From a bacterium (GTDB lineage Archaea; Micrarchaeota; Micrarchaeia; Micrarchaeales; CABMGC01), in NCBI GenBank assembly GCA_021829835.1, contig JAKBPE010000001.1:352-64351 (forward strand): a stretch of 64,000 bases of DNA, in the 5' to 3' direction. The notes beneath the pieces are model-generated. The model was not told where the DNA came from. It was given only the letters and a program-made list of their open reading frames with translations, and made no database searches. The position numbers and the translations under genes are program-made. Position 1 is the stretch's first letter. The number at the start of each line of letters is the position of its first letter. Shown one piece after another: positions 105-25,001 of this stretch.

Positions 105-217
105 GCAAGCGTAGTCTAGCCTGGTTAGGACTTTGGCCTTCCAGCTTTACTCTCGCGTTGTTTATGCAACGCAAAGGATGAGAGTCAAAAACCCGGGTTC
201 AAATCCCGGCGCTTGCA
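105..217 (+). tRNA. tRNA-Gly(UCC) with a 39-nt intron (144..182) at the canonical 37/38 position
   Basis: The 7-bp acceptor stem is perfect (GCAAGCG/CGCTTGC) with discriminator A. The D arm is GTCT/GGAC with a GG-containing loop. The anticodon stem is TTGGC/GTCAA, and the loop is CTTCCA + A after intron removal (anticodon TCC at 140-142). The T arm is CCGGG-TTCAAAT-CCCGG. Mature length is 74 nt. Confidence 0.7.
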
Positions 218-1451: not shown

Positions 1452-1569
1452 ATGCCAAACAGCAACAAGCTTTTCCACCCATCGGGCAGTATTTCTTATC
1501 GTGAAGAGGCTTAGCTTCCGAGTTCGGAATGGGTTCGGGCGTTTCACTCTTCCTATGGCCGTTTGACAT
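1452..1569 (-). rRNA. rrf: 5S ribosomal RNA, solitary (no 16S/23S in the window)
   Basis: The reverse complement reads ...GGCCATAGGAAGAGTGAAACGCCCGAACCCATTCCGAACTCGGAAGCTAAGCCTCTTCACGATAAGAAATACTGCCCGATGGGTGGAAAAGC.... This contains the conserved 5S core CCGAACTCGGAAGCTAAGC. A terminal 12-bp helix I pairs ATGTCAAACGGC with GCTGTTTGGCAT, including two G-U pairs. Confidence 0.88.
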
Positions 1570-9795: not shown

Positions 9796-12700
9796 TCAAT
9801 AGGTTACAGGTGGAGGCACATGTATATTGCTGTTTTTCGGATTTGGTTCCCCATTGTTTGGTGTGTTCTTCTTTCCCTTGTCCTTTAGCATTGTTGTATA
9901 TATGAGGTATATAAGGATTACCGCAATGGCTACAATCAAGATTGATATCTCAGCCTTTTTGCTCTCTAGGGCTATAAGTAATGAAGATTTTTCCGTTGAT
10001 GAGTTCTGGGATGTGCTGACTGAAGTTGTATTCACAGTCTTCTTTATTGTTGTAGTGTTGGTTTTCGACACATTCGTAGTAGATGGTTTCGATTTGGGCA
10101 CATTCGACTTCATAAGTGCAAGAAGGATATCTTTAGGAATCTGGAATGATATTGTGCAGAGCTTTGAGTTTATGGTGAAATTGGTTATCATCTTCCAGGA
10201 ATTGCCAGAGTATTCAAATGGGAATGTCTCGTTCTGAGGCATGCTGCATGAGTAGTGGAGATCTGCATTTATTGAAAGGTTTGAGTATTGCGGATACGTA
10301 ATATTGAGAACATATAGCTTCGTATATTCGGAAGGAGGGGCTGGAGATTCCTGTGTGGAATTCGTTATGGAGATTAATGCGGATGAAGGGATTGCTTTGG
10401 TTGGATTTATTGCAAATACAGATGATGTCTTCTCGTAGTTTATTATGCTCTGATGGCCTTTTGTAGAATTGATTGTGATTGAGAGATTGCTGTTTGTTGA
10501 ATTGTATAGTGTTATAGATCTACCCGTGTTTTGGATGTTTGGAAGCGTAGTCACGTTTAGTATCTTCTTGCCTGGAAGCGGTACAACGCATACATTTGAT
10601 GCGATTGTATGCACAGCAGGTATGTAGGAGATATTAAGCAGTCTTATTATGTAGTCGTATGATGCAGTGCCTCCTATTATCTCTGTAGAGTTAGGCGAGA
10701 GAGTATACTGCAGGCCGTCTATTGTGATTCCCGTATCAGTAGGCGATATGTAGTTGGCGCGTATGTTAAAGGATTTTCCAGTAAAGTTCACTACGGCGAA
10801 ATCAGGGTTCGTAAGATTTGTTACCAAATAACATGTTGAATTTAGGTTTATTACAGATGGTTTGAATGTTCCTCCGCCTCCTGCGCCTGCGGTACCTGAG
10901 CCTGAAGAGCCACTGCTGCCTGAACTGCCACTGCCTCCACCACCGCCTCCGCCGCCTCCGCTGGGTGGTGTGGGGGTAGACGCACTACTTACTGTTATTT
11001 CAGTTGTCTGTGAATATGTGTTATAACCTGCAGAGTCAGTGACTTCTAGGCAATAATATGCAGTAGAGGATGGCGTTGCCGTATAACTGCTTGTATTGGT
11101 GCCGGATATCTGCAAGTCAGATGTACATGAGGAAGATGGTCCTGAGATCCATGTGTATGTGTATGGAGGTGTGCCGCCTGAGACTGAAGATGTGAAAGTA
11201 AGGCTCTGGCCTGTTGTTATGGACTGTTGTGTGGATGGAGATATTGAGACAGATAAAGGTGTCTCGCTTGCGAATACACCTACAACAGGATCATTTGGTA
11301 TGTTAAATTTAATACTGCATGGATTCGATGAGGAGTAAAGTATTGGAATTGGAGACCATACACTTCCATTTAGCAAATATGGAGTAACTGAACTGTATTT
11401 ACATGCGTATGAAACAGTGAGATTTGATTCTGGATTTAGAGAATATGGATTTGATTCGTTAATATACAGAACCAGTATTTTGATTGGTTTTGATCCTAGA
11501 GAGGGAATGGATGTGTTGGCTGTTTCATTCGCTACAACTATGTTTTCTAGAATACTTCTATTGAATATGGATGATAATGAGATTGTTGAATTGAATTTAG
11601 GATATTTGAGATCTACTGAATAGTTATAAGATAAGAAGAGCTGCTGAGGCAGACCCGAAGAAGTGTTTCCAACTAATTCTACTTTGTCATAACTTCTAAA
11701 GACACTGCTTGTATTTAGGCGAGGTTCTTTTGTTAGGAGGATATTATTTGTCTGAGTATTTGGGCCTGTTGCTATCTGGCTTGATGTAAGTCCGTAGAAC
11801 TTATTTCCCAATATCGATGCTGTTACGTTTGGATCGTCATTTACCACAGCTACTGCCGAAGAAGAATTAAGATCATTAAGTATTGTGTTGTTAATGACTT
11901 GTAGATTCGAATTTGAGTGAAGATTGCCTTCTTCCCCGAAAGAGATTATTGCAGGATTTCCGCTGAATGGTCCTTGTTCGATAGTATTGTTTTCTATTAA
12001 GGCATTTCCCCCATTAGGAAGATCTACACTATAACTTGCTGTGCCGTTTTCATCTTGTATCCTGTTGTCTATTATTACAGTGTTCTGCGCACGGCTCTTT
12101 ATTTCATGGCCTACTGAAGCGGCGTGAACATAGCTGTGCTTTATAGTAAACAGTTTTATGTCGTTTATGTACATGTTGTGGGTATAACCATACCCAACAG
12201 AGGAAACATTGTATACTCCATTATGGTAAAATTCGCTATTTTCTATTAGTATTGTTCCGTTAGGGTCTGGAGCCGCAAGGAGTCCATCCTGATTATTATA
12301 GAAATAACTGTTGTTTATTATCATATTTCCTCCTTCATATCTGATTCCTGCACCATTGGAGGATGAGGGATCTGAAAATGCTCCTGAAAATGAGAAATGA
12401 GTTATTGTTACAGTCACCCCGCTGCCTCCTACATCGAGTATTCCCTTGTCATTAGGTGGCTGTTCTGTTGCAACCATATTTACTACGCCGCCTACGCCTT
12501 GTAAAGTGAGATTGAAATTTATCGTCTCTGGAAAGTCGTTAGTATAGGTACCTGCTGCGACTTTTACTGTATCACCACTAGTTGCATTTGCAATTGCTGC
12601 TGCTATGCTATGATATTCTAAGCCAGGACCTACCGTTAGAGTAGTTGCATTCGAAGTTATGATTATAGGCACAACACTTATTGTTACTGGGGATGAACAT

Positions 12701-15700
12701 CCCGATTCCGGTGCATATGCAGAATCCTTTACTAGATAAGAGTAAGTAGTGTTCTGTGAAGGGCTTTCCGTGATGCCCTGTGAGACTGCGTTTGCAATAG
12801 GTGTCTGGCATGAACTCCCGGTATACCATTGATATGAATATGGTGTTGTGCCTCCTGAAGGGTTTGCAGTGAGGGTAACAGATTGTCCGGCATTGATTGC
12901 AGTTGATGATGCAGTTATGCTTCCTATGTTAAGTGGGGAATTTACAGTTATAGTATCAGGAGAGGAACATACAAATACAGAGCTGTTTGTTGTTTCGCCT
13001 GCCCCGTAAGAGTATGTCGACGATGAAGTTAACGAAATATTATATGAAGAGGATGTCGCACCTGAGATTGCGGTTGAACAACCGCTGCCTGAATACCATT
13101 GGTATGTGTATGGGAAAACTCCACCTGAAGGATCAGCAGAGAGAGTAATATATTGCCCTGAGTCAATTGTTGGGCTTGAAGGATAAATGGGATTTGCAAC
13201 AAGAGGCGTGCTTTGGCTATATCCTTTTGGAGAGAAGTCGAATGCTTCATCAAGCCCTGTTGATGTTCTTGCAGAAGTATCGGTTTCTGCAGGATATGTT
13301 GAAAGGATCCAGTTATAGGCCTGTATTGCTGTTGCGTTATTGTCTATGGAGATTATGCCAGCACTGGACATAAGAGCCAGTTGTATGTAGTTAATTTCTC
13401 CTTCGGCAGTATTTGCGCTTTGATTGTACAGGGATGTTCCAATTGAGCCTGAAGCTATATCTGCTTCCCAAACCTGTTTCCATGTCTGTAGTACTGGATT
13501 TGTTACGTTTGCTGAAGAAATATTCAAGACAGGAAGGTCGTATGTTATTCCTGCTTCAGGATTAAAGCCTTCAGGACCAGCAGTAAATCTTCCTGATATG
13601 AAATTAGTCATCCATTTTAGATAAGTCAATGCTCCTGGAACGTTACGTTCTACAGCCGCTATTACAGTGCTCGCGAAGTAATCTTGCTGCCATGGAGCCT
13701 GAATGCAGTTGGTGCCTGGACATGGGTAATAACCATATGCGCCTACGATATATCCATGAGGTTGTACAGAACTGAATGGGGAACTGCTATTTACATATGT
13801 GTCGTATAGATACTGGAATTCTACAGCTTGGTTGTTCTTGAAGAAAGAACTAAGCGGATCTGAATTTGGATCTGCAAATGCAGCATCTATTATCTGGCGA
13901 AGTCTCCAAGCATAGCCTCTTACTTGATCTGCGCCTTCTGCTACGATTACTCTGTTGTTATGCCATGTTGTATATCCAGGATTTACATCAGTAAGGGCAA
14001 ATGTTCCTTGTGCGTCTACCTGGTCAAGATAATGCATGCTGCCAGTAAGAATGTAAGGAATATATGATAGATCTGGCCAATGTGCAGGATCTATACTGAC
14101 TGGATCGCTTCCGTCTGCAAATTGTGTAACACATCCATAAAGCTCGTAACATGCACCATATGGAGGCGGATCAACACTAATATTTGGAAATGTTCCGGTA
14201 TTTAGATAAGAATTTCCTTGAGGATAGTAATAATCCCAGCCCATCGCGCCTGCCTGAGTGTCTGTAAGTTGTGCAAAATTTGATACAGTCTGGTTTTGGC
14301 TGAGCAGCCATGCCGCATTCCAGGTAGGCTGAGGTCCTATATCAGGCCTTCCACCACTTGCTGGCATGTAGAAAGTGATTCCAAAACCGCTCATTATTGT
14401 ATTGTATGCTATTGCAGTTGCAGAATTGCCTAGATTCTCAAGTGAAGAGGCGTAATACGAGACAAGCCCTTTTGAAAGTCCATCTGAAAGATTGTAGGGC
14501 TGTATTGCACCTACCTGTTCCAACTCTGCTATATTATGTACTACGTTTACTTCAGGAGCTCCGTTGCTCCAGGTTTCCCAATTCCATTCGGTGTAGTGAG
14601 GCTGGAAGATATTATTCTTTATAAGAATAGGTTGATTATTTTCTTTGATTACAAGATTATAATTTACGTCGCCACCTACAGGCTGCATTGCGTAATCATT
14701 TGCAAATAACACATCAGTATGTGTTGATCCATCTGCGTATTTTCTTATGTCGAACATTACATGGAATGATCCGCTGACATTGTAATTCACCCTTCCTTCA
14801 ACGCTTTGATTGCCTTGAAGCCAGTATGTAACCGAATTTGATGCGAGTGCGTTTGCAAGCACCGTTGATGCGTTTATCTGATAGTTAGTAACATTATAAG
14901 AAAGGGGTATTTTTTCAATTTCTGAACAATACCAGACAGTACAGCTTACATATAGATATCTGCCATGTGGGCTAATAGTTAACACTTTTGGATTTCCTCC
15001 TGCCTGAGAAGGATTGATGTCTGAGATTGTCCTTATTGTTTTATTTGTAGTCAGATTGAATACAGTTATTGTGCTTCCTGCGTCATCTGAATAGCCATCT
15101 AGTATATATGCAATTGTTCCTGAAGGGTTTATTGTCATTGCTCCTGGTCCGTAACCTATATTAGTTATATTGTAGATAGGCTCTTCTGTTGTTGTATTTA
15201 TTACACTTATTCTTGAACCTTGTATATCCAATACATAAACAAGGTTGCCTGAAGGACTTATTATTGCGATTGATGGACCAGAGTTTGCATAATTTCCTAC
15301 TGTTATTTCCTTAGATATGGTATCGTTGTTAAGATTTACCACACTTACTTGAGATCCTTGCCATACGCCATCATTGTTTACCCCTAGATCGGTAACATAT
15401 GCAGTTGTTCCTGAAGAGGTTATTTCTATGTCGCTTGGGTTCCAGAAGCCACTTATAGTGTTTGTTACTTGATAGGTGGTAAGATTTAATGTGCTTATGG
15501 AGTAATTTCCTGAATTTATTACATAGGCGAGTGGTTTTGTTGGGCTTAGGCGTATAAATGAGGGTCCATCAAATCCTTTTATAACACTGGTTACCTGATG
15601 AGTTACAAGATTTACTATCTCAATAGTGTTATTTCCCTGTGATGCCACATATGCGCTTGTTCCGGAAGGGAATAGAACTATGCTAATTGGTTCAGATCCT

Positions 15701-19127: not shown

Positions 19128-22100
19128 CTATTTTTTCCCAGGTTGGGAATCTGATTTGGAGATTATTTTTGGATCGGCAGGCGGCGGCTTCTGTTTTTCT
19201 GCGGTGTATTTCCCTTTTATGCGCAGGTAATAATAGACAGACAGGATTACTATTGCAATAAATATAGCCAGCAGGAGGTATTCATAGGTATTATATTGAA
19301 GATATTCGGAATTTGTTGTGTTGTTCACTTCAGATGTATTTACAGTGATTATATGGGTGCTTATATTTCTTTTTACAGTATGATTTGATATTTTGGATGT
19401 GTTGATAGTTGGAGTTGAGTTTGTAATTTTTGTATATCTACCGAGTGCAATTATAGGATCGCCCCCAGTAGTTAAAGATACAGTACAAGATTTTGAATTG
19501 ACAGTGAATTGTGTAAACTGTTCCCATGAAGAATTTGACAAAGCGAATGGGAATATCTTGTAGAAAGGTATGCTGCAGTTGTATTTCATTGTTATGGTCA
19601 TGGTTGTGTTTGTAGGAATTGCATTTTGAAGATTTATTCCTTTCACGGAAATATTCTGAACCAGAATCTTATTGTATCCTTGAGGCAGAGGAGGCAGATA
19701 TTGTGCAAGTGTTAAGTTTCTTACAGTAAATCTCTGTTGGGCAGTAAATGCAGATGTTATATTTACAGTTGTTTTCTCAGCCAAAAGATTTAGCTGTACA
19801 GGCACTGCGTTGTAGGTCATAATGTCATAAGTCTCGTTCTGGCCAGTTATATTAATAGGTTTGAGATTTGAAATAGCAATTACCTTTAATGCTATTGTGC
19901 TTTTTACAGGAGTATCGGAAAGGTTGTATATTGACATGTTATATAGGTAGGGTTCACCTGAAGCTTCAAAGATGGTTTTTGATTGGTTTGGATATAGAAC
20001 ATAGTTTTTGCCATTTACAGTTATACCTGCATTTGCATTAGTTATAAAGTTTTCTACAAAATCTAATTTTGTACCTAGAAGTGTTAAATTAAATACAGTT
20101 AGGGGAGTTATGCCGAAGACAACAAATCCGTCATTTATACTTGCCATTTGCGGTTTTGTTCCGGGAAAATTTATATTTGTGCTGTTGCCGACCGCTCCAC
20201 CGCCTGATGATGAGCCGCCTGAAGGACCTGATGAAGTTCCTGAAGAGGTTGAAGGAGAGGAAGAACTACTGATAGATATATCTGCAGTTGGTGAGTTTTC
20301 GATTTCATTTACTGTTGCTGAATCTGTGACTGTGACGTAGTATTTGACGGTCTGCGGCGTTGCGCCTGCAGGTTCCGTAAATATTGAGGATATTGCACCT
20401 GGAATTGCATTCGCGGAGCCTGAAGTGTCATTGTACCATTGGTAGAAGTAAGGAGTAGTACCTCCTGAAACTGATGCGTTTAAAGTGATTGTCTGTCCAG
20501 AAGAATAGGTACCTGATGGAGGGCTTATTGTTGGAGTACCAAGTGCGAGATTGGCTGTGACTAAATCCGTTCCTGATGTTGCGGATGTTGGCGTTGTGGC
20601 TGAATCGGTGACTATGTAGCAGTAATAGGTTGAGGAAGATGGCGAAGCGTGAATAGTATTTGAGGTTGCGCCTGTGATTGCAGTATCGGACGAGCAGGTT
20701 GATGATGTTCCATTATACCATTGGTAGGTGTATGGCGTCGTTCCTCCTGACGGATTTGCGGTTAATGTTACGCTCTGACCTGAATCTATTGTCGGGGATG
20801 AAGGCGTTACTGATCCTGCAGATAGTGCGGTGTTTACCACATCGGAATCTGTTGCGGATGTAGTTGATTCTGGCGTTGTGGCGGAATCGGTGACTATGAT
20901 GTAATATTTGACTGTCTGTGCGGTTGCGCCTGCGGTTTCCGTGAATGTTGCGGATGTTGCGCCTGGAATTGCATTCGCGGAGCCTGAAGTGTCGTTGTAC
21001 CATTGGTATGAATATGGAGTCGTTCCGCCTGAAACTGATGCGGTCAGCGAAACGCTCTGACCTGCGTCGTATGTTGCAGATGAAGGAGAGATTGTCGGCG
21101 TTACGAGTGCGGAATTTACTGTGACTAAATCCGTTCCTGATGTTGCGGATGCTGGAGATGTGGCGGAATCCGTGACTATGTAGCAGTAATATGTGTTTGA
21201 TGTTGGACTTGCGGAATACGTGGATGACGTTGCGCCTGAAATTGCGGTATCTGATGAGCACGTCGATGACGTTCCACTATACCATTGGTAGGTGTATGGC
21301 GTCGTGCCTCCTGACGGATTTGCGGTTAATGTTACGCTCTGACCTGAATCTATTTTTGGAGATGAAGGCGTGACTGCGTTCGCCAGCAATGGGGAGTTGG
21401 TTGAATAAGTTAAAGTGTTGAAAGTTGTGGAGGGAGTGGTTGCACTATCTGTTATAAAGATATTAGCAGTAAATGTGCCTGCGCCCCATATGCTATTTTG
21501 AACAAAAGAGATACTATTTGATGACACTGTTATGCCAGTATAAAGCGCATTATAAACTAAAGAGCCGATTGAATTGTAAACTAAAAAGTTATAAGTGTAG
21601 GGAGAGGTACCGGTTCCACTTGTATCTGCAGTTAATACCTGAGTCTGACCTTCATCTATTAATGAATTTGAAACTTTCCACGAATTTGAGAGGGCAGAAT
21701 TGACCGAAAACGGATTTGAATAAATGGTGTTGGCTATAACATTTGTTGTGGCGGAATCGGTAATTATTGTATTTTCTACCAGATTCCCAAGCCCTACCAT
21801 GGAATTTTGGACTTGTTCGCAGTTTGATTTGGAATTAGCAGTAACAGAACCGAATAAAGCATCAGCTTCAATACTATTTGTGTTTGCTTGTTGAACAATT
21901 AAAAAATTATAAGTAAATGGCGAAGTTCCTCCGTTGGTGCTTGCTGTGAGGCATACATATTGCCCTGCGTCCAACAAGGTGTTGCTTGGATTTGTAATTG
22001 TTGGGACCAATGCAGGATTTAATGTCATCACTCCGCTTTCAACGCTATTTAATGTAACAGGAGTCGTGGCAGAGTCTGTGACAATAACATTTGCCACTAC

Positions 22101-25001
22101 AGTATTTCCAATATATTCGGATGGGAAAGCCCATAAAAAGTTTGCTGAGGCGCTGCTGCTGACTGCATTGTATGAATTTGTTATAAAAGAATCAGTTATA
22201 CTGTTTACAACTATTACATTATAGGCATAATTCGGAGTTCCTCCTGTCCATAATGAATTAAAATTAACATTCTGGCCATAGTCATAACTTTCTGCTGTTG
22301 CTGGTGTGGCAGTCGGTTGAGTCATAACAGAATTGACTATATATGTTTCTGTTGTGGAATTTGAAGTTTCCGGAGTAGTAGCTGAATCTTTAACTTCAAT
22401 ATAATACTTCATTGTTCCTGTCATTCCTGCTGTTGCCGTGTATGTAGATAAAGTTGCTCCACTTATTACTGTTGGTGTTCCTGTTGTATCGTTATACCAT
22501 TGATAAGAATAAGGTGTAGTTCCTCCTGAAACTGATGCGGTCAGCGAGACGCTCTGACCTGAGTCATAAGTTGCAGATGAAGGAGAGATTGTCGGCGTTC
22601 CGAGTGCGAGATTAGCTGAGACTGTATCTATCGGAGAACCTGAAACCGCATTAGGTGTGGCAGAGTCTGTCACAATATAGCAGTAGTATGTAGTTGAAGT
22701 TGGAGATGCTAAATAATTTGCGGAAGTGGCGCCTGAAATTGCGGTATCTGATGAGGAACAAAGCCCTGAACTTGAAGAGGCAGTATACCATTGGTATGAA
22801 TATGGGGTTGTTCCGCCTGAAACAGCTGAAATTAAATTGACTGACTGCCCTGAATCTAATGTAGGAGAATAAGGAGTGATAGGATCTGCTAGTAATGCAT
22901 TATTTGCCCCTGCCATTGAACCTTCGCTTGTAGTAGGCATGATGTCTTTTGGAGGGGCGGTTCTAACCCTATACCATTGTGTATACTCGTTAGATGCAAA
23001 AGACACCCCACCATAATAAACTGCCCCTAATTCTGGGAATAATAAGCCTGAAGCATGAACATAGATGCTGAAAAATGGGTCAGTGTAGGTTTGATAGGTT
23101 ATTCCTAAATGGTCTGAAACATTATAAAGCATAGAATATATGCCAAAGGCATCTGGTGGGTAGTTAGTAGTGTAGAAAATGCCACCATTACCATCATATC
23201 CACAGACATTACATCCTTCTTGTGTTTGCCCTAAAAAGACAATAGAATCATTGCCTACATTATCCATGAAGCCACCGATTGTAAAAGAACCATCATATGT
23301 TGATGGGGTTGTTGAGAGTGCCTCAAAGACATTTCCTGCGGCATATCTTGTTGTGGCATTTATTGCTTCGGCATTGGCAATTGTAGATGAACCTATTAAT
23401 GTAATTCCATTATTTATGGTATAAGTTATTCCGTTTACATGCCATTTTGAACTGAGAGTCGTTCCGGCAAAATCAGAATAGAAGCTAAACACGTTGTTTC
23501 CATTGTCATACTCTGCATAGTCAGAACACGTCGCAGTCGCGGCTGGGTTCGCACAGCTGAGCTGAGGCGCTTCCCCTGTGCTCACTCCGTTCAGCAAGTT
23601 TGTGCTGGTGCTTGCGATTCCGAGGTAAATCGTGTAGGGGATTGTCATCGATGCTGGTAGCTCGTTGACTGTGTTCGCTCCGAGGTTCACCCACCAGAGG
23701 ACGTTCGCTGATGTTGAGAGTGCTGTGGACTGCTCGTTCAGGACGTTTCCTTCCAGCCAGCTTGGAATTATCGTTCCGTTGGCGTAGAAGAACTCGGTGT
23801 TCATCAGGTTGGAGGCTAGGTAGCTCGAGAACGGGATGGCGTTGAAGCCTATAATGTTTCCATTGCTTGAGACGCCTATCGCTAGAGGCGTGTTTGCCGA
23901 GACGGCTACTGACTGCGTGTTGATGATGTTGATTGGGATGTAGTAGAGGATGTTGGCTGGGCTGACTACTGGATCGTCGAGGCTGTAGTTCTGGTTTCCA
24001 AGGCCCTCGAATGTGAAGTTGTAAGGCTCTGTTGGGCTTAGGCTGAATGTCTTTGTGATGCTTACTGAGCCCATGGTGTTGTCCGAGAAGCTGAGAATCG
24101 TGTTCGAGCCTGCCTGTATCAAGGCGTTGAACGGCACTCTGTTTCCCTGAACCAGATGGCTGATTAGCTTAACTGTGATGTTGAGAGGCGCACAGTCGTT
24201 CAGCCCCCAGCATCCGTTGTAGACAGCTACAGGCAGATGGTAGCTTCCTGGCTTGGTCAGCGTCTCGTTGAAGAGCCTTGAGCTTAACTGGATGTAGGAG
24301 TAGCTTTGGTTCTTGCTTACCTGAAATTTGTTGAATTGGACTGAGCCATAGATTGAATTGTAAGTTGCGTTTATTTTGTCTGAGCCTGCTGGTATCGGCT
24401 TTGCGTTACTGTATAGTGAACCATATGGCAGAGTAGCAGTCTGATTGTGGATTAAGCCTAAGTTTATTGGTGAATTTGGGTTTACGCCTATAGCTTCCAA
24501 AGCGTTGGATTGCTGTGAGTTCCACTCGGTACTCCATTGGATAGAATTAAAGGAAGTGGAGAAATACAGTATTGTTGGTTTTGATAAGGAAATTACATTA
24601 GATACTGGCACTGCGTTGTTTATAATGTAGTTCATCCCATTGTAGCTTATTGAATTTTGACCTGGTTCGTAAAGAACATTTCCATTTAAAGTGTTTGCTG
24701 TAAGCATGTTCATGGATATTTGGAAGATGTCTGTGTAACTTGTGATGTTTAGAGACCGGTTGGTTAATCCTGAAAGAGGTCCAAGCCGAATAAGATAAGT
24801 TGAGCCTGGGGGCAGGCCGATGATTTCCAGCATGGCATTTTCTGGGCTGCTTGTGGATTGGGAAGTGGACTGATTTGGAGATGCGTGAAGCATAAACATT
24901 AAAGAAACAATCAGAACGGCTGAGATTGTCAGAATTGTTGAGAAGAAAATTAAATAATCATAGTCGATTCTTTTGAAGAAATCTGTCTTGCAATTATTCA
25001 C
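19128..25001 (-). CDS. Giant (1957 aa) membrane-anchored surface protein with a DUF2341-like plus LamG-like N-terminal region, about 11 Ig-like repeats and a C-terminal anchor module
   Basis: The ORF is uninterrupted with an N-terminal TM segment (IFFSTILTISAVLIVSLMFML). A DUF2341-like pattern is present (YYIPINIINTQS...FFYANGTIIPSWLEGN...NVLWWVNL...YTIYLG), followed by a concanavalin/LamG-like stretch. Next comes the Ig-like array, then a Ser/Gly linker at about 20195-20275. The C-terminus is a TM helix (LLLAIFIAIVILSVYYYL) plus a basic tail. Confidence 0.85.
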   Translation of the reverse strand: MNNCKTDFFKRIDYDYLIFFSTILTISAVLIVSLMFMLHASPNQSTSQSTSSPENAMLEIIGLPPGSTYLIRLGPLSGLTNRSLNITSYTDIFQISMNMLTANTLNGNVLYEPGQNSISYNGMNYIINNAVPVSNVISLSKPTILYFSTSFNSIQWSTEWNSQQSNALEAIGVNPNSPINLGLIHNQTATLPYGSLYSNAKPIPAGSDKINATYNSIYGSVQFNKFQVSKNQSYSYIQLSSRLFNETLTKPGSYHLPVAVYNGCWGLNDCAPLNITVKLISHLVQGNRVPFNALIQAGSNTILSFSDNTMGSVSITKTFSLSPTEPYNFTFEGLGNQNYSLDDPVVSPANILYYIPINIINTQSVAVSANTPLAIGVSSNGNIIGFNAIPFSSYLASNLMNTEFFYANGTIIPSWLEGNVLNEQSTALSTSANVLWWVNLGANTVNELPASMTIPYTIYLGIASTSTNLLNGVSTGEAPQLSCANPAATATCSDYAEYDNGNNVFSFYSDFAGTTLSSKWHVNGITYTINNGITLIGSSTIANAEAINATTRYAAGNVFEALSTTPSTYDGSFTIGGFMDNVGNDSIVFLGQTQEGCNVCGYDGNGGIFYTTNYPPDAFGIYSMLYNVSDHLGITYQTYTDPFFSIYVHASGLLFPELGAVYYGGVSFASNEYTQWYRVRTAPPKDIMPTTSEGSMAGANNALLADPITPYSPTLDSGQSVNLISAVSGGTTPYSYQWYTASSSSGLCSSSDTAISGATSANYLASPTSTTYYCYIVTDSATPNAVSGSPIDTVSANLALGTPTISPSSATYDSGQSVSLTASVSGGTTPYSYQWYNDTTGTPTVISGATLSTYTATAGMTGTMKYYIEVKDSATTPETSNSTTETYIVNSVMTQPTATPATAESYDYGQNVNFNSLWTGGTPNYAYNVIVVNSITDSFITNSYNAVSSSASANFLWAFPSEYIGNTVVANVIVTDSATTPVTLNSVESGVMTLNPALVPTITNPSNTLLDAGQYVCLTASTNGGTSPFTYNFLIVQQANTNSIEADALFGSVTANSKSNCEQVQNSMVGLGNLVENTIITDSATTNVIANTIYSNPFSVNSALSNSWKVSNSLIDEGQTQVLTADTSGTGTSPYTYNFLVYNSIGSLVYNALYTGITVSSNSISFVQNSIWGAGTFTANIFITDSATTPSTTFNTLTYSTNSPLLANAVTPSSPKIDSGQSVTLTANPSGGTTPYTYQWYSGTSSTCSSDTAISGATSSTYSASPTSNTYYCYIVTDSATSPASATSGTDLVTVNSALVTPTISPSSATYDAGQSVSLTASVSGGTTPYSYQWYNDTSGSANAIPGATSATFTETAGATAQTVKYYIIVTDSATTPESTTSATDSDVVNTALSAGSVTPSSPTIDSGQSVTLTANPSGGTTPYTYQWYNGTSSTCSSDTAITGATSNTIHASPSSSTYYCYIVTDSATTPTSATSGTDLVTANLALGTPTISPPSGTYSSGQTITLNASVSGGTTPYFYQWYNDTSGSANAIPGAISSIFTEPAGATPQTVKYYVTVTDSATVNEIENSPTADISISSSSSPSTSSGTSSGPSGGSSSGGGAVGNSTNINFPGTKPQMASINDGFVVFGITPLTVFNLTLLGTKLDFVENFITNANAGITVNGKNYVLYPNQSKTIFEASGEPYLYNMSIYNLSDTPVKSTIALKVIAISNLKPINITGQNETYDIMTYNAVPVQLNLLAEKTTVNITSAFTAQQRFTVRNLTLAQYLPPLPQGYNKILVQNISVKGINLQNAIPTNTTMTITMKYNCSIPFYKIFPFALSNSSWEQFTQFTVNSKSCTVSLTTGGDPIIALGRYTKITNSTPTINTSKISNHTVKRNISTHIITVNTSEVNNTTNSEYLQYNTYEYLLLAIFIAIVILSVYYYLRIKGKYTAEKQKPPPADPKIISKSDSQPGKK
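20280..22920 (-). repeat. In-frame array of Ig-like coding repeats inside the 1957-aa gene, with three A+B repeat pairs that are near-identical at DNA level
   Basis: Segments at 20707-20800 and 21271-21363 match almost base for base at an offset of 564 bp (188 codons). Similar matches link 20398-20470 to 20959-21060, and 21001-21110 to 22500-22610. Confidence 0.85.

Follow-up and report, generated by a model that had tools for sequence, protein, structure and literature searches.

The 64,000-nucleotide stretch of DNA analysed here (referred to as the window; positions 352 to 64,351 of contig JAKBPE010000001.1, assembly GCA_021829835.1, from the Micrarchaeota) contains two very large genes on the same strand, with 2.5 kb between them. 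Their products, giant protein 1 (p1) and giant protein 2 (p2), end in regions of the same layout: a flexible hinge, two beta-rich domains (A and B), a stalk, a single transmembrane (TM) helix and a short basic tail (Table 1). We consider it probable, if well short of certain, that the 3' ends of both genes encode a common membrane-proximal pedestal and anchor of surface glycoproteins of Micrarchaeota, a lineage of the DPANN archaea. An initial annotation of this DNA, made from the letters alone, had pointed to both open reading frames (ORFs) and to their common C-terminal layout. Both ORFs exist, and the ORF list and translations place the peptides quoted from them where the annotation had put them. 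The stalk, the single TM helix and the Lys/Pro-rich tail are present in both proteins according to translations and hydropathy. Each protein also has the proposed Gly/Ser-rich hinge, which in p2 is Ser/Gly-rich and not poly-Gly. The ranges 9796-10985 and 19128-20275, originally assigned to the two regions, are not multiples of three; kept in frame, they become 9796-10986 and 19128-20276.

The two C-terminal regions are homologous. BLASTP with compositional matrix adjustment aligned the last 396 residues of p1 with the last 382 residues of p2 at 95 bits and E=5e-26, with 28% identity over 336 columns running from the first beta segment to the TM helix. Smith-Waterman scores were compared with those of 1000 composition-preserving shuffles, giving z values of 24.8 for the globular part, 10.9 for the first segment (domain A) and 20.0 for the second (domain B). 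Richness in Asn, Ser and Thr does not account for the resemblance, because the E-value and the z value of 24.8 were obtained with composition controlled. A further copy of domain B, claimed earlier to lie upstream of the hinge of p1, is also there. The hidden Markov model (HMM) of the family recovers it over HMM positions 138-251 with an independent E-value (i-E) of 4.5e-07, tblastn with E of about 0.006-0.008 and the shuffles with z of 8.1 and 10.6. This internal copy has its own Cys pair (C1751/C1779) and its own Asp-Pro motif (residues 1788-1789).

Table 1. Features of the two giant genes, with window positions and with residue numbers of the respective protein
Feature	Residues	Position	Strand	Basis
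Giant protein 1 (p1), 2285 residues		9796-16653	minus	ORF list, translation
p1 internal domain B copy, upstream of hinge	1681-1795	11269-11613	minus	family HMM, tblastn, shuffles
p1 Gly/Ser-rich hinge, PSGGGGGGGGGSGSSGSSGSSGSGTAGAGGGG	1886-1928	10870-10998	minus	translation, DNA
p1 domain A, nine-strand all-beta (predicted)	1929-2028	10570-10869	minus	AlphaFold2 model, conservation
p1 domain B, ~12-strand all-beta (predicted), C2136/C2166	2046-2184	10102-10518	minus	AlphaFold2 model
p1 Thr/Asn/Ser/Lys-rich stalk, several N-x-S/T sequons	2185-2235	9949-10101	minus	translation
p1 single C-terminal TM helix, ISILIVAIAVILIYLIYTTML	2236-2256	9886-9948	minus	hydropathy scan
p1 short Lys/Pro-rich tail, predicted cytoplasmic	2257-2285	9799-9885	minus	translation; stop codon 9796-9798
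Giant protein 2 (p2), 1957 residues, GTG start		19128-25001	minus	ORF list, translation
p2 Ser/Gly-rich hinge	1575-1613	20163-20279	minus	translation
p2 domain A	1614-1712	19866-20162	minus	family HMM, AlphaFold2 model
p2 domain B, C1809/C1839, conserved Trp, Asp-Pro before last strand	1713-1857	19431-19865	minus	HMM, AlphaFold2, conservation
p2 stalk	1858-1907	19281-19430	minus	translation
p2 TM helix	1908-1926	19224-19280	minus	hydropathy scan
p2 basic Lys/Pro-rich tail	1927-1957	19131-19223	minus	translation

Structure and conservation of domains A and B

Structure prediction gave confident all-beta domains. AlphaFold2, run with family alignments, modelled the p1 module with a predicted local distance difference test score (pLDDT) of 88.2 and a predicted template modelling score (pTM) of 0.63; for the p2 module the values were 93.3 and 0.78. 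The two models contain the same two domains with the same order of strands, and helical turns of three to four residues at most. Domain A has about 100 residues in nine strands (in p1, pLDDT 86-98 over module residues 1-100) and opens in p1 with a conserved [KL]P immediately after the hinge. Domain B has about 140 residues in about twelve strands. The long loop linking them in the p1 model (residues 2029-2045) is variable and poorly predicted, with pLDDT below 50 at module residues 101-114.

The two beta-rich segments recognised in the initial annotation do align between p1 and p2. Within each protein they are two separate, unrelated domains, and their origin by an internal duplication was rejected (hhalign probability 0.7%). 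A and B are independent domains and are found separately in other proteins.

Over 41 diverse members of the family the best conserved positions are W225, kept in all 41, C208 and C238, kept in 40 each, and N39, G47, P84 and Y55, the last four belonging to domain A. The signature Cys...Trp...Cys of domain B spans about 30 residues and corresponds to C2136/W2153/C2166 in p1 and C1809/W1826/C1839 in p2; p1 C2136/C2166 are C208/C238 in module numbering. The Cys pair, which the initial annotation had proposed to look for, is present in all three copies in the window at a distance of 28-30 residues. Among 162 instances of domain B the pair is complete in 150 and both cysteines are lost in four, while the Trp is retained in 160. 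Such co-conservation and co-loss suggest that C208 and C238 form a disulfide. In the same set an Asp-Pro dipeptide (module positions 247-248) sits in the turn that leads into the last strand of B in 129 instances. It is found in p2 (residues 1848-1849, window ~19455-19460), and the terminal B domain of p1 has Asp-Ile in its place.

N-x-S/T sequons occur at about 5.7 per 100 residues of the module, and at five aligned columns the sequon is shared by half of the members or more. Conserved sequons of domain B are N170 (33/41) and N189 (32/41). It is likely that the module is N-glycosylated, and the stalk is presumably glycosylated too. Comparison of p1 with the fragment of its orthologue at locus L001 gave 88% identity for domain A, 70% for the adjoining immunoglobulin (Ig)-like domain, 58% for domain B, 40% for the stalk and 38% for the internal B copy. 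Domain A is the most conserved of these parts and thus appears to be under the strongest constraint. Both p1 and p2 have a hydrophobic N-terminal segment as well, which leads to a predicted type I topology.

Distribution and architecture of the family

Further carriers of the module, whose search had been suggested at the outset, are numerous. An exhaustive HMMER scan over 1.84 billion cluster representatives with the family HMM found 561 carriers at E<=1e-3, 345 at E<=1e-10 and 47 at E<=1e-30. Both giant proteins, whose sequences took part in building the HMM, match its positions 1-253 with i-E of 2.9e-111 (p1) and 2.8e-106 (p2); independent carriers reach 1e-15 to 1e-85. A word-indexed protein search returned only five and then three relatives and missed p1 and p2. 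Given the 561 carriers of the exhaustive scan, these small numbers reflect a limit of the tool and not rarity: the indexed search badly under-samples low-identity, compositionally biased families such as this one. A taxonomic scan, covering one genome per GTDB species and seeded by one peptide motif, led to 15 confirmed loci, of which 13 are titled as metagenome-assembled genomes (MAGs) of Micrarchaeota or Micrarchaeaceae and two as 'uncultured archaeon'. In a scan of IMG/VR viral contigs no relative was found.

The order of hinge, A, B, Thr/Ser/Pro-rich stalk, TM helix and basic tail recurs in the 15 loci and in the 151 metagenomic cluster representatives for which sequence was analysed. A TM segment follows the last module domain in 141 of these 151. 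The stalk, which joins the module to the TM helix, has 35 residues in the median (Thr 21%, Ser 13%, Ala 9%, Pro 9%) and the tail 22 (Lys 15%, Arg 15%). A Gly-rich hinge with a median tract of 17 residues precedes 83 of the 95 A domains that have enough upstream sequence. The order A-B is the most frequent. There are also carriers with B alone, A alone, A-A, B-hinge-A and B-hinge-A-B, the last being the arrangement of p1. Carriers of the main arrangement, A-B-TM, differ little in how far the TM helix lies from the start of A, with a median of 264 residues and a 10-90% range of 249-290 (n=109).

The N-terminal parts of the carriers are unrelated to one another. Apart from the types found in p1 and p2, ectodomains include a PQQ beta-propeller, a polysaccharide deacetylase, a phosphoesterase, a peptidase A4 with Kelch repeats and DUF2341. 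Stand-alone carriers of 340-400 residues, among them P0005, P0027 and P0064, have only a signal sequence and a Thr-rich linker in front of the hinge and module. The recurrent architecture, together with unrelated N-terminal parts, supports the initial view of a stalk-and-anchor cassette onto which different ectodomains are grafted. The anchor role itself stands at the level of predicted topology.

Known folds, known systems and the probable role of the module

Pfam and NCBIfam scans, which covered the whole proteins, both C-terminal regions and the 41 members, gave nothing consistent for the module. Ig_3, PKD, SprB and CARDB profiles match the ectodomains of p1 and p2, and none of them matches within the last 382-396 residues. 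Foldseek searches of the PDB with two independent high-confidence models returned no match at E<=1e-3. The weak matches of model 1 were ankyrin ZU5 (6m3p_E), the GAIN domain of BAI3 (4dlo_B) and the Methanosarcina S-layer domain DUF1608 (3u2g). Of these, 3u2g (probability 0.91, E=0.28) was absent with model 2, as was ZU5. The GAIN domain was met with models 1 and 2 at probabilities of 0.85 and 0.47, E of 0.13 and 0.85 and template modelling scores of 0.31-0.32, which is not significant. With model 2 the recurrent weak matches were GAIN and nanobody (VHH)-like Ig domains at E>0.8, and a VHH-like match is a generic pointer to a beta-sandwich. Against the viral structures of BFVD there was one uncharacterised phage protein (E=4.4e-5) with a root-mean-square deviation of 14 A, which is uninformative. 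From the models we conclude that A and B are predicted beta-sandwich domains without a recognisable characterised relative.

The only solved family reached by the sequence profile was the N-terminal adhesin domain of Candida Als proteins (2y7l, 2y7m, 2y7n, 2y7o, 2ylh). Like the module, Als has two tandem beta-sandwich domains on a Thr-rich stalk. The whole-sequence E for Als9 was 9e-6; the per-domain E was 0.006, with a bias of 6.9 bits and long gaps. Als structures were absent from the Foldseek lists of both models, and the Pfam scan of the 41 members gave no Als family. Since the alignment is gappy and biased and Foldseek does not support it, this match is most likely a compositional echo.

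Shared C-terminal sorting or anchor cassettes are known from several systems: PGF-CTERM/archaeosortase in archaea, the C-terminal beta-sandwich domain of the type IX secretion system (T9SS) and LPXTG. Like them, the module is one conserved C-terminal unit found behind many unrelated ectodomains within a lineage, and its last elements are a hydrophobic helix and a basic tail. Unlike the short sorting signals, its conserved part consists of about 250 residues of folded domains. The tails of p1 and p2 contain no LPXTG or PGF motif, neither C-terminus contains PGF, and Pfam and NCBIfam matched no such signals, NCBIfam having been run on the whole proteins and on the C-terminal regions. Another likeness is to GAIN of adhesion G-protein-coupled receptors and SEA of mucins, where a conserved folded module also sits between a huge variable glycosylated ectodomain and the membrane. 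SEA has an alpha/beta fold, whereas both models here are all-beta, and no SEA match was found by Pfam among the 41 members. Unlike GAIN, the module has no GPS motif: p1 and p2 lack HL[ST] before the last strand, and there is no Pfam match to GPS or GAIN.

SlaB of the Sulfolobales S-layer is built of beta-sandwich domains, an elongated coiled-coil stalk and a single C-terminal TM helix, and spans the pseudo-periplasm. The module similarly combines beta-sandwich domains with a stalk and a single C-terminal TM helix. Its stalk, unlike the coiled coil of SlaB, is Thr-rich and of low complexity, and it carries large variable ectodomains where SlaB has none. A profile search of PDB sequences and Foldseek revealed no sequence similarity and no significant structural similarity between SlaB and the module. 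Models of archaeal S-layer proteins (S_layer_N/S_layer_C, DUF1608) were not matched in Pfam or NCBIfam, and Foldseek reached the DUF1608 fold only through the non-significant match of model 1 to 3u2g. SlaA and SlaB are mentioned for the S-layer of the host (PMC11329633). For Micrarchaeota, the available part of one preprint places the S-layer 20-25 nm over the membrane and reports that an N-glycosylation system is expressed; the Micrarchaeum S-layer protein has no clear membrane anchor, and a second TM protein was suggested as the stalk (bioRxiv 10.1101/2021.04.28.441871). No shared C-terminal module is mentioned in that part of the text.

Giant surface proteins are themselves familiar in this phylum. 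According to the accessible portion of the genome description of 'Ca. Mancarchaeum acidiphilum' Mia14, about 2.5% of the genome codes for four giant PKD/YVTN/Kelch surface proteins with a proposed role in host contact (Golyshina et al. 2017, PMC5498576), and YVTN/PKD/beta-helix surface proteins of Methanosarcina are cited there (Jing et al. 2002). Both p1 and p2 resemble these giants in their very large size and in ectodomains of propeller, PKD/Ig-like and beta-helix types, and Mia14 belongs to the same phylum. What differs is the subject: that portion of PMC5498576 covers ectodomain folds and does not mention a conserved hinge-A-B-stalk-TM module. In our literature searches we found no description of the module.

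Our results suggest the following picture of a pedestal and anchor. The proteins would be exported via the N-terminal signal sequence and would stay fixed in the membrane, with type I topology, by the single C-terminal TM helix, the basic tail remaining cytoplasmic. Outside the membrane there would be an extended Thr/Ser/Asn-rich stalk of 35-50 residues, presumably glycosylated, and then two rigid, heavily N-glycosylated beta-sandwich domains, B before A, with B stabilised by the disulfide. The Gly-rich hinge, free of side chains, would mechanically uncouple this pedestal from the ectodomain, whether the latter is an adhesin-like array of Ig, PKD or propeller domains or an enzyme. The pedestal would thereby raise the functional part off the membrane, to or through the S-layer. 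Domain A, the most conserved piece and the one directly behind the hinge, probably contacts a conserved partner in the envelope.

Several observations weigh against this picture. A-only carriers have a much shorter and more variable span between A and the TM helix (median 156 residues, n=26), and the carrier at L002 passes from the module directly into the TM helix, so a fixed spacer length is not universal. Domain B occurs also upstream of the hinge, far from the membrane, and hence is not solely a membrane-proximal element. No Pfam, NCBIfam or significant PDB Foldseek match gives A or B a function. The restriction to Micrarchaeota appears from a scan of genomes that was seeded with the pattern of one motif.

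A more specific form of the pedestal, which we hold to be doubtful, is that stalk, B and A make up a ruler spanning the 20-25 nm pseudo-periplasm, with A docking at the underside or the pores of the S-layer and the poly-Gly hinge, as the one part of sufficient thinness, threading the lattice. It would fit because the distance from A to the TM helix is narrow and A is conserved. The short spans of A-only carriers weaken a strict molecular ruler and contradict it as a universal rule. If the threading is true, any ectodomain ahead of the hinge would be displayed outside the S-layer, and the module would act across the phylum as an address tag that marks the external, host-facing proteins of these symbionts.

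Of the other explanations, the one closest to a pedestal takes the module as a means of docking or anchoring the S-layer. By analogy with SlaB, A and/or B could bind the S-layer protein from below, so that carriers, especially the stand-alone forms of 340-400 residues, would tether the S-layer, and giant ectodomains would be displayed via the thin poly-Gly hinge. This we regard as unlikely. It agrees with the lack of a clear membrane anchor in the Micrarchaeum S-layer protein and with the second TM protein suggested as its stalk in the preprint above, with the existence of P0005, P0027 and P0064, with the constraint on A between orthologues and with the narrow span from A to the TM helix; by our estimate an extended stalk of about 35 residues and two beta-sandwiches are of similar magnitude to the 20-25 nm gap. 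The weak Foldseek match to 3u2g points in the same direction, but it is not significant and is lost with the second model. Furthermore, there is no S-layer gene within the window, and the short spans of A-only carriers do not suit a single fixed gap. Active binding of another kind, in which one or both beta-sandwiches recognise the cell's own glycans or the host surface like lectins or adhesins instead of acting as passive spacers, seems decidedly improbable. The Als9 profile match, the weak structural neighbours (Ig V-like domains and phage distal-tail or receptor-binding-type proteins) and the presence of B in ectodomain positions upstream of the hinge would speak for it. The Als9 match has the weaknesses described above in an Asn/Ser/Thr-rich profile, however, no Pfam adhesin or lectin family matches more than one of the 41 members, and a site near the membrane beneath a giant ectodomain is poorly placed for binding a host.

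The conserved Asp-Pro of domain B raises the question of cleavage. No peptide bond is more acid-labile than Asp-Pro, and acid drainage is home to many Micrarchaeota. By analogy with GAIN, SEA and GDPH-like modules, the bond, which lies between the last two predicted strands and is present in 129 of the 162 B domains, might be an acid-labile or autocatalytic site next to the membrane, leaving the ectodomain non-covalently attached or releasing it. The weak Foldseek match to 4dlo_B appeared with both models. Its E-values are not significant, however, the terminal B domain of p1 has Asp-Ile at this place, and neither a GPS-type motif nor a Pfam match to GPS, GAIN or SEA was found. The dipeptide is also kept in internal B copies far from the membrane, which makes it look like a feature of the fold. 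An autoproteolytic role of the Asp-Pro is thus unlikely, and to a shedding module as a whole we give very little credence. Practically no weight is left for a chance or compositional resemblance of Asn/Ser/Thr-rich tails, or for a local duplication or gene conversion without wider meaning. Both regions are indeed rich in these residues, and the genes are close neighbours on one strand; the composition-controlled E-value and z value, the 561 related clusters and the loci in 15 other species genomes refute it, and an identity of only 28% does not agree with recent gene conversion.

With the pedestal and anchor as the favoured role, A and B would be an undescribed and apparently lineage-specific domain pair doing a familiar job, that of a shared C-terminal anchor cassette. 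This is not a new biological principle, conserved cassettes of this kind being known in other lineages. Micrarchaeota are tiny genome-reduced symbionts whose contact with the host must go via surface proteins, and little is understood of how an S-layer-covered cell holds such proteins in place. The module HMM offers a handle for listing the displayed surface proteome of any Micrarchaeota genome, which would include secreted enzymes such as acid peptidases, deacetylases and phosphoesterases, as well as candidate host adhesins. It also defines two new beta-sandwich domain families that are worth database entries. Moreover, it gives a concrete idea of how large glycoproteins may sit relative to the S-layer and a starting point for structural work on the envelope.

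Ectodomains, variant carriers and genomic setting

From its N-terminus p1 consists of a hydrophobic signal or anchor, a YVTN-type beta-propeller, a large unassigned region, Ig/PKD-like 'PSGGTxPYxYQWY' domains, a beta-helix-like region, the internal B domain, an Ig-like domain and the C-terminal module (Pfam/NCBIfam, translation). The central region at ~13200-14850 (residues ~600-1150) is large and has no Pfam match. Its homology with the N-terminal part of carrier P0096 is clear: the motifs 'VVSFDLQNNQ...YITF.E.F' and 'HVMFDIRKYADGSTHTDV' of p1 correspond to 'VVGFDLQNNQ' and 'HVVFDIREYADGSTYTDV' of P0096. The region may represent an enzyme or a binding domain that has escaped recognition. The part at ~11700-12650 (residues ~1335-1650) contains repeated 'N-x-x-I-x-N', 'NNQDGLL' and 'HNMYIND' and resembles the right-handed beta-helices known from pectate lyases; neither Pfam nor NCBIfam gave a match to it at E<0.1.

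In p2, the N-terminal hydrophobic signal or anchor is followed by an unassigned region, a long Ig-like/PKD-like array with Pfam matches to Ig_3, SprB and Ig_7, and the module. An inner tandem repeat at 20555-21376 (minus strand; 282 nt, 2.9 copies, 66% matches) encodes successive Ig-like 'SGQSVTLTA.PSGGTTPYTYQWY' domains. The related MAG L003 codes for a protein of more than 3761 residues in which about 30 near-identical 94-residue Ig-like repeats lie ahead of the same module. Taken together, the two arrays suggest rapid repeat expansion.

Carriers often adjoin each other: there are two in the window, three in L011 and a tandem pair in L018. The pair in L018 (6782-11176) comprises carriers of 987 and 392 residues with very similar modules, directly downstream of genes for glycosyltransferases and polysaccharide flippase. 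The shorter one has little beyond the signal, hinge, A, B, stalk and TM helix, and could be a dedicated component of the envelope rather than a display scaffold. Other loci depart from the common layout. In L014 (1686-4598) two TM segments and another domain, extracellular in appearance, come after the module. In L008 (5770-8658) and L012 (2-1714) a lone A precedes a different beta-rich domain of about 190 residues and then the TM helix, and in L009 and L010 an Ig-like 'GGFGNYTYTWY' domain stands between A and the TM helix. The cytoplasmic tail, usually of about 25 residues, is extended in a GC-richer relative at L003 (10800-11362) to about 180 residues that are rich in Arg, Lys and Glu and coiled-coil-like. 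The tail of P0007 has about 200 residues and contains Cys-rich motifs. Such long tails suggest that some carriers may signal to or bind cytoplasmic partners.

The p1 protein is called identically on 12 contigs of ENA metagenome assemblies. The neighbours of the p1 and p2 genes are of a housekeeping type: GatD/GatE, a radical-SAM methylthiotransferase-like protein, NAD kinase, a pyridine-nucleotide disulfide oxidoreductase, an Obg-like GTPase, NAD(P)HX dehydratase and a succinate dehydrogenase flavoprotein. Near the start of the window there is an Rfam tRNA match of 113 nt (105-217, plus strand), which ARAGORN did not call. It spans the full 71-position Rfam model, implying an intron of about 40 nt. 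A 5S rRNA gene at 1454-1566 (minus strand) is isolated, with neither 16S nor 23S nearby. The isolated 5S gene and the tRNA match with its implied intron are consistent with an archaeal genome that has unlinked rRNA genes.

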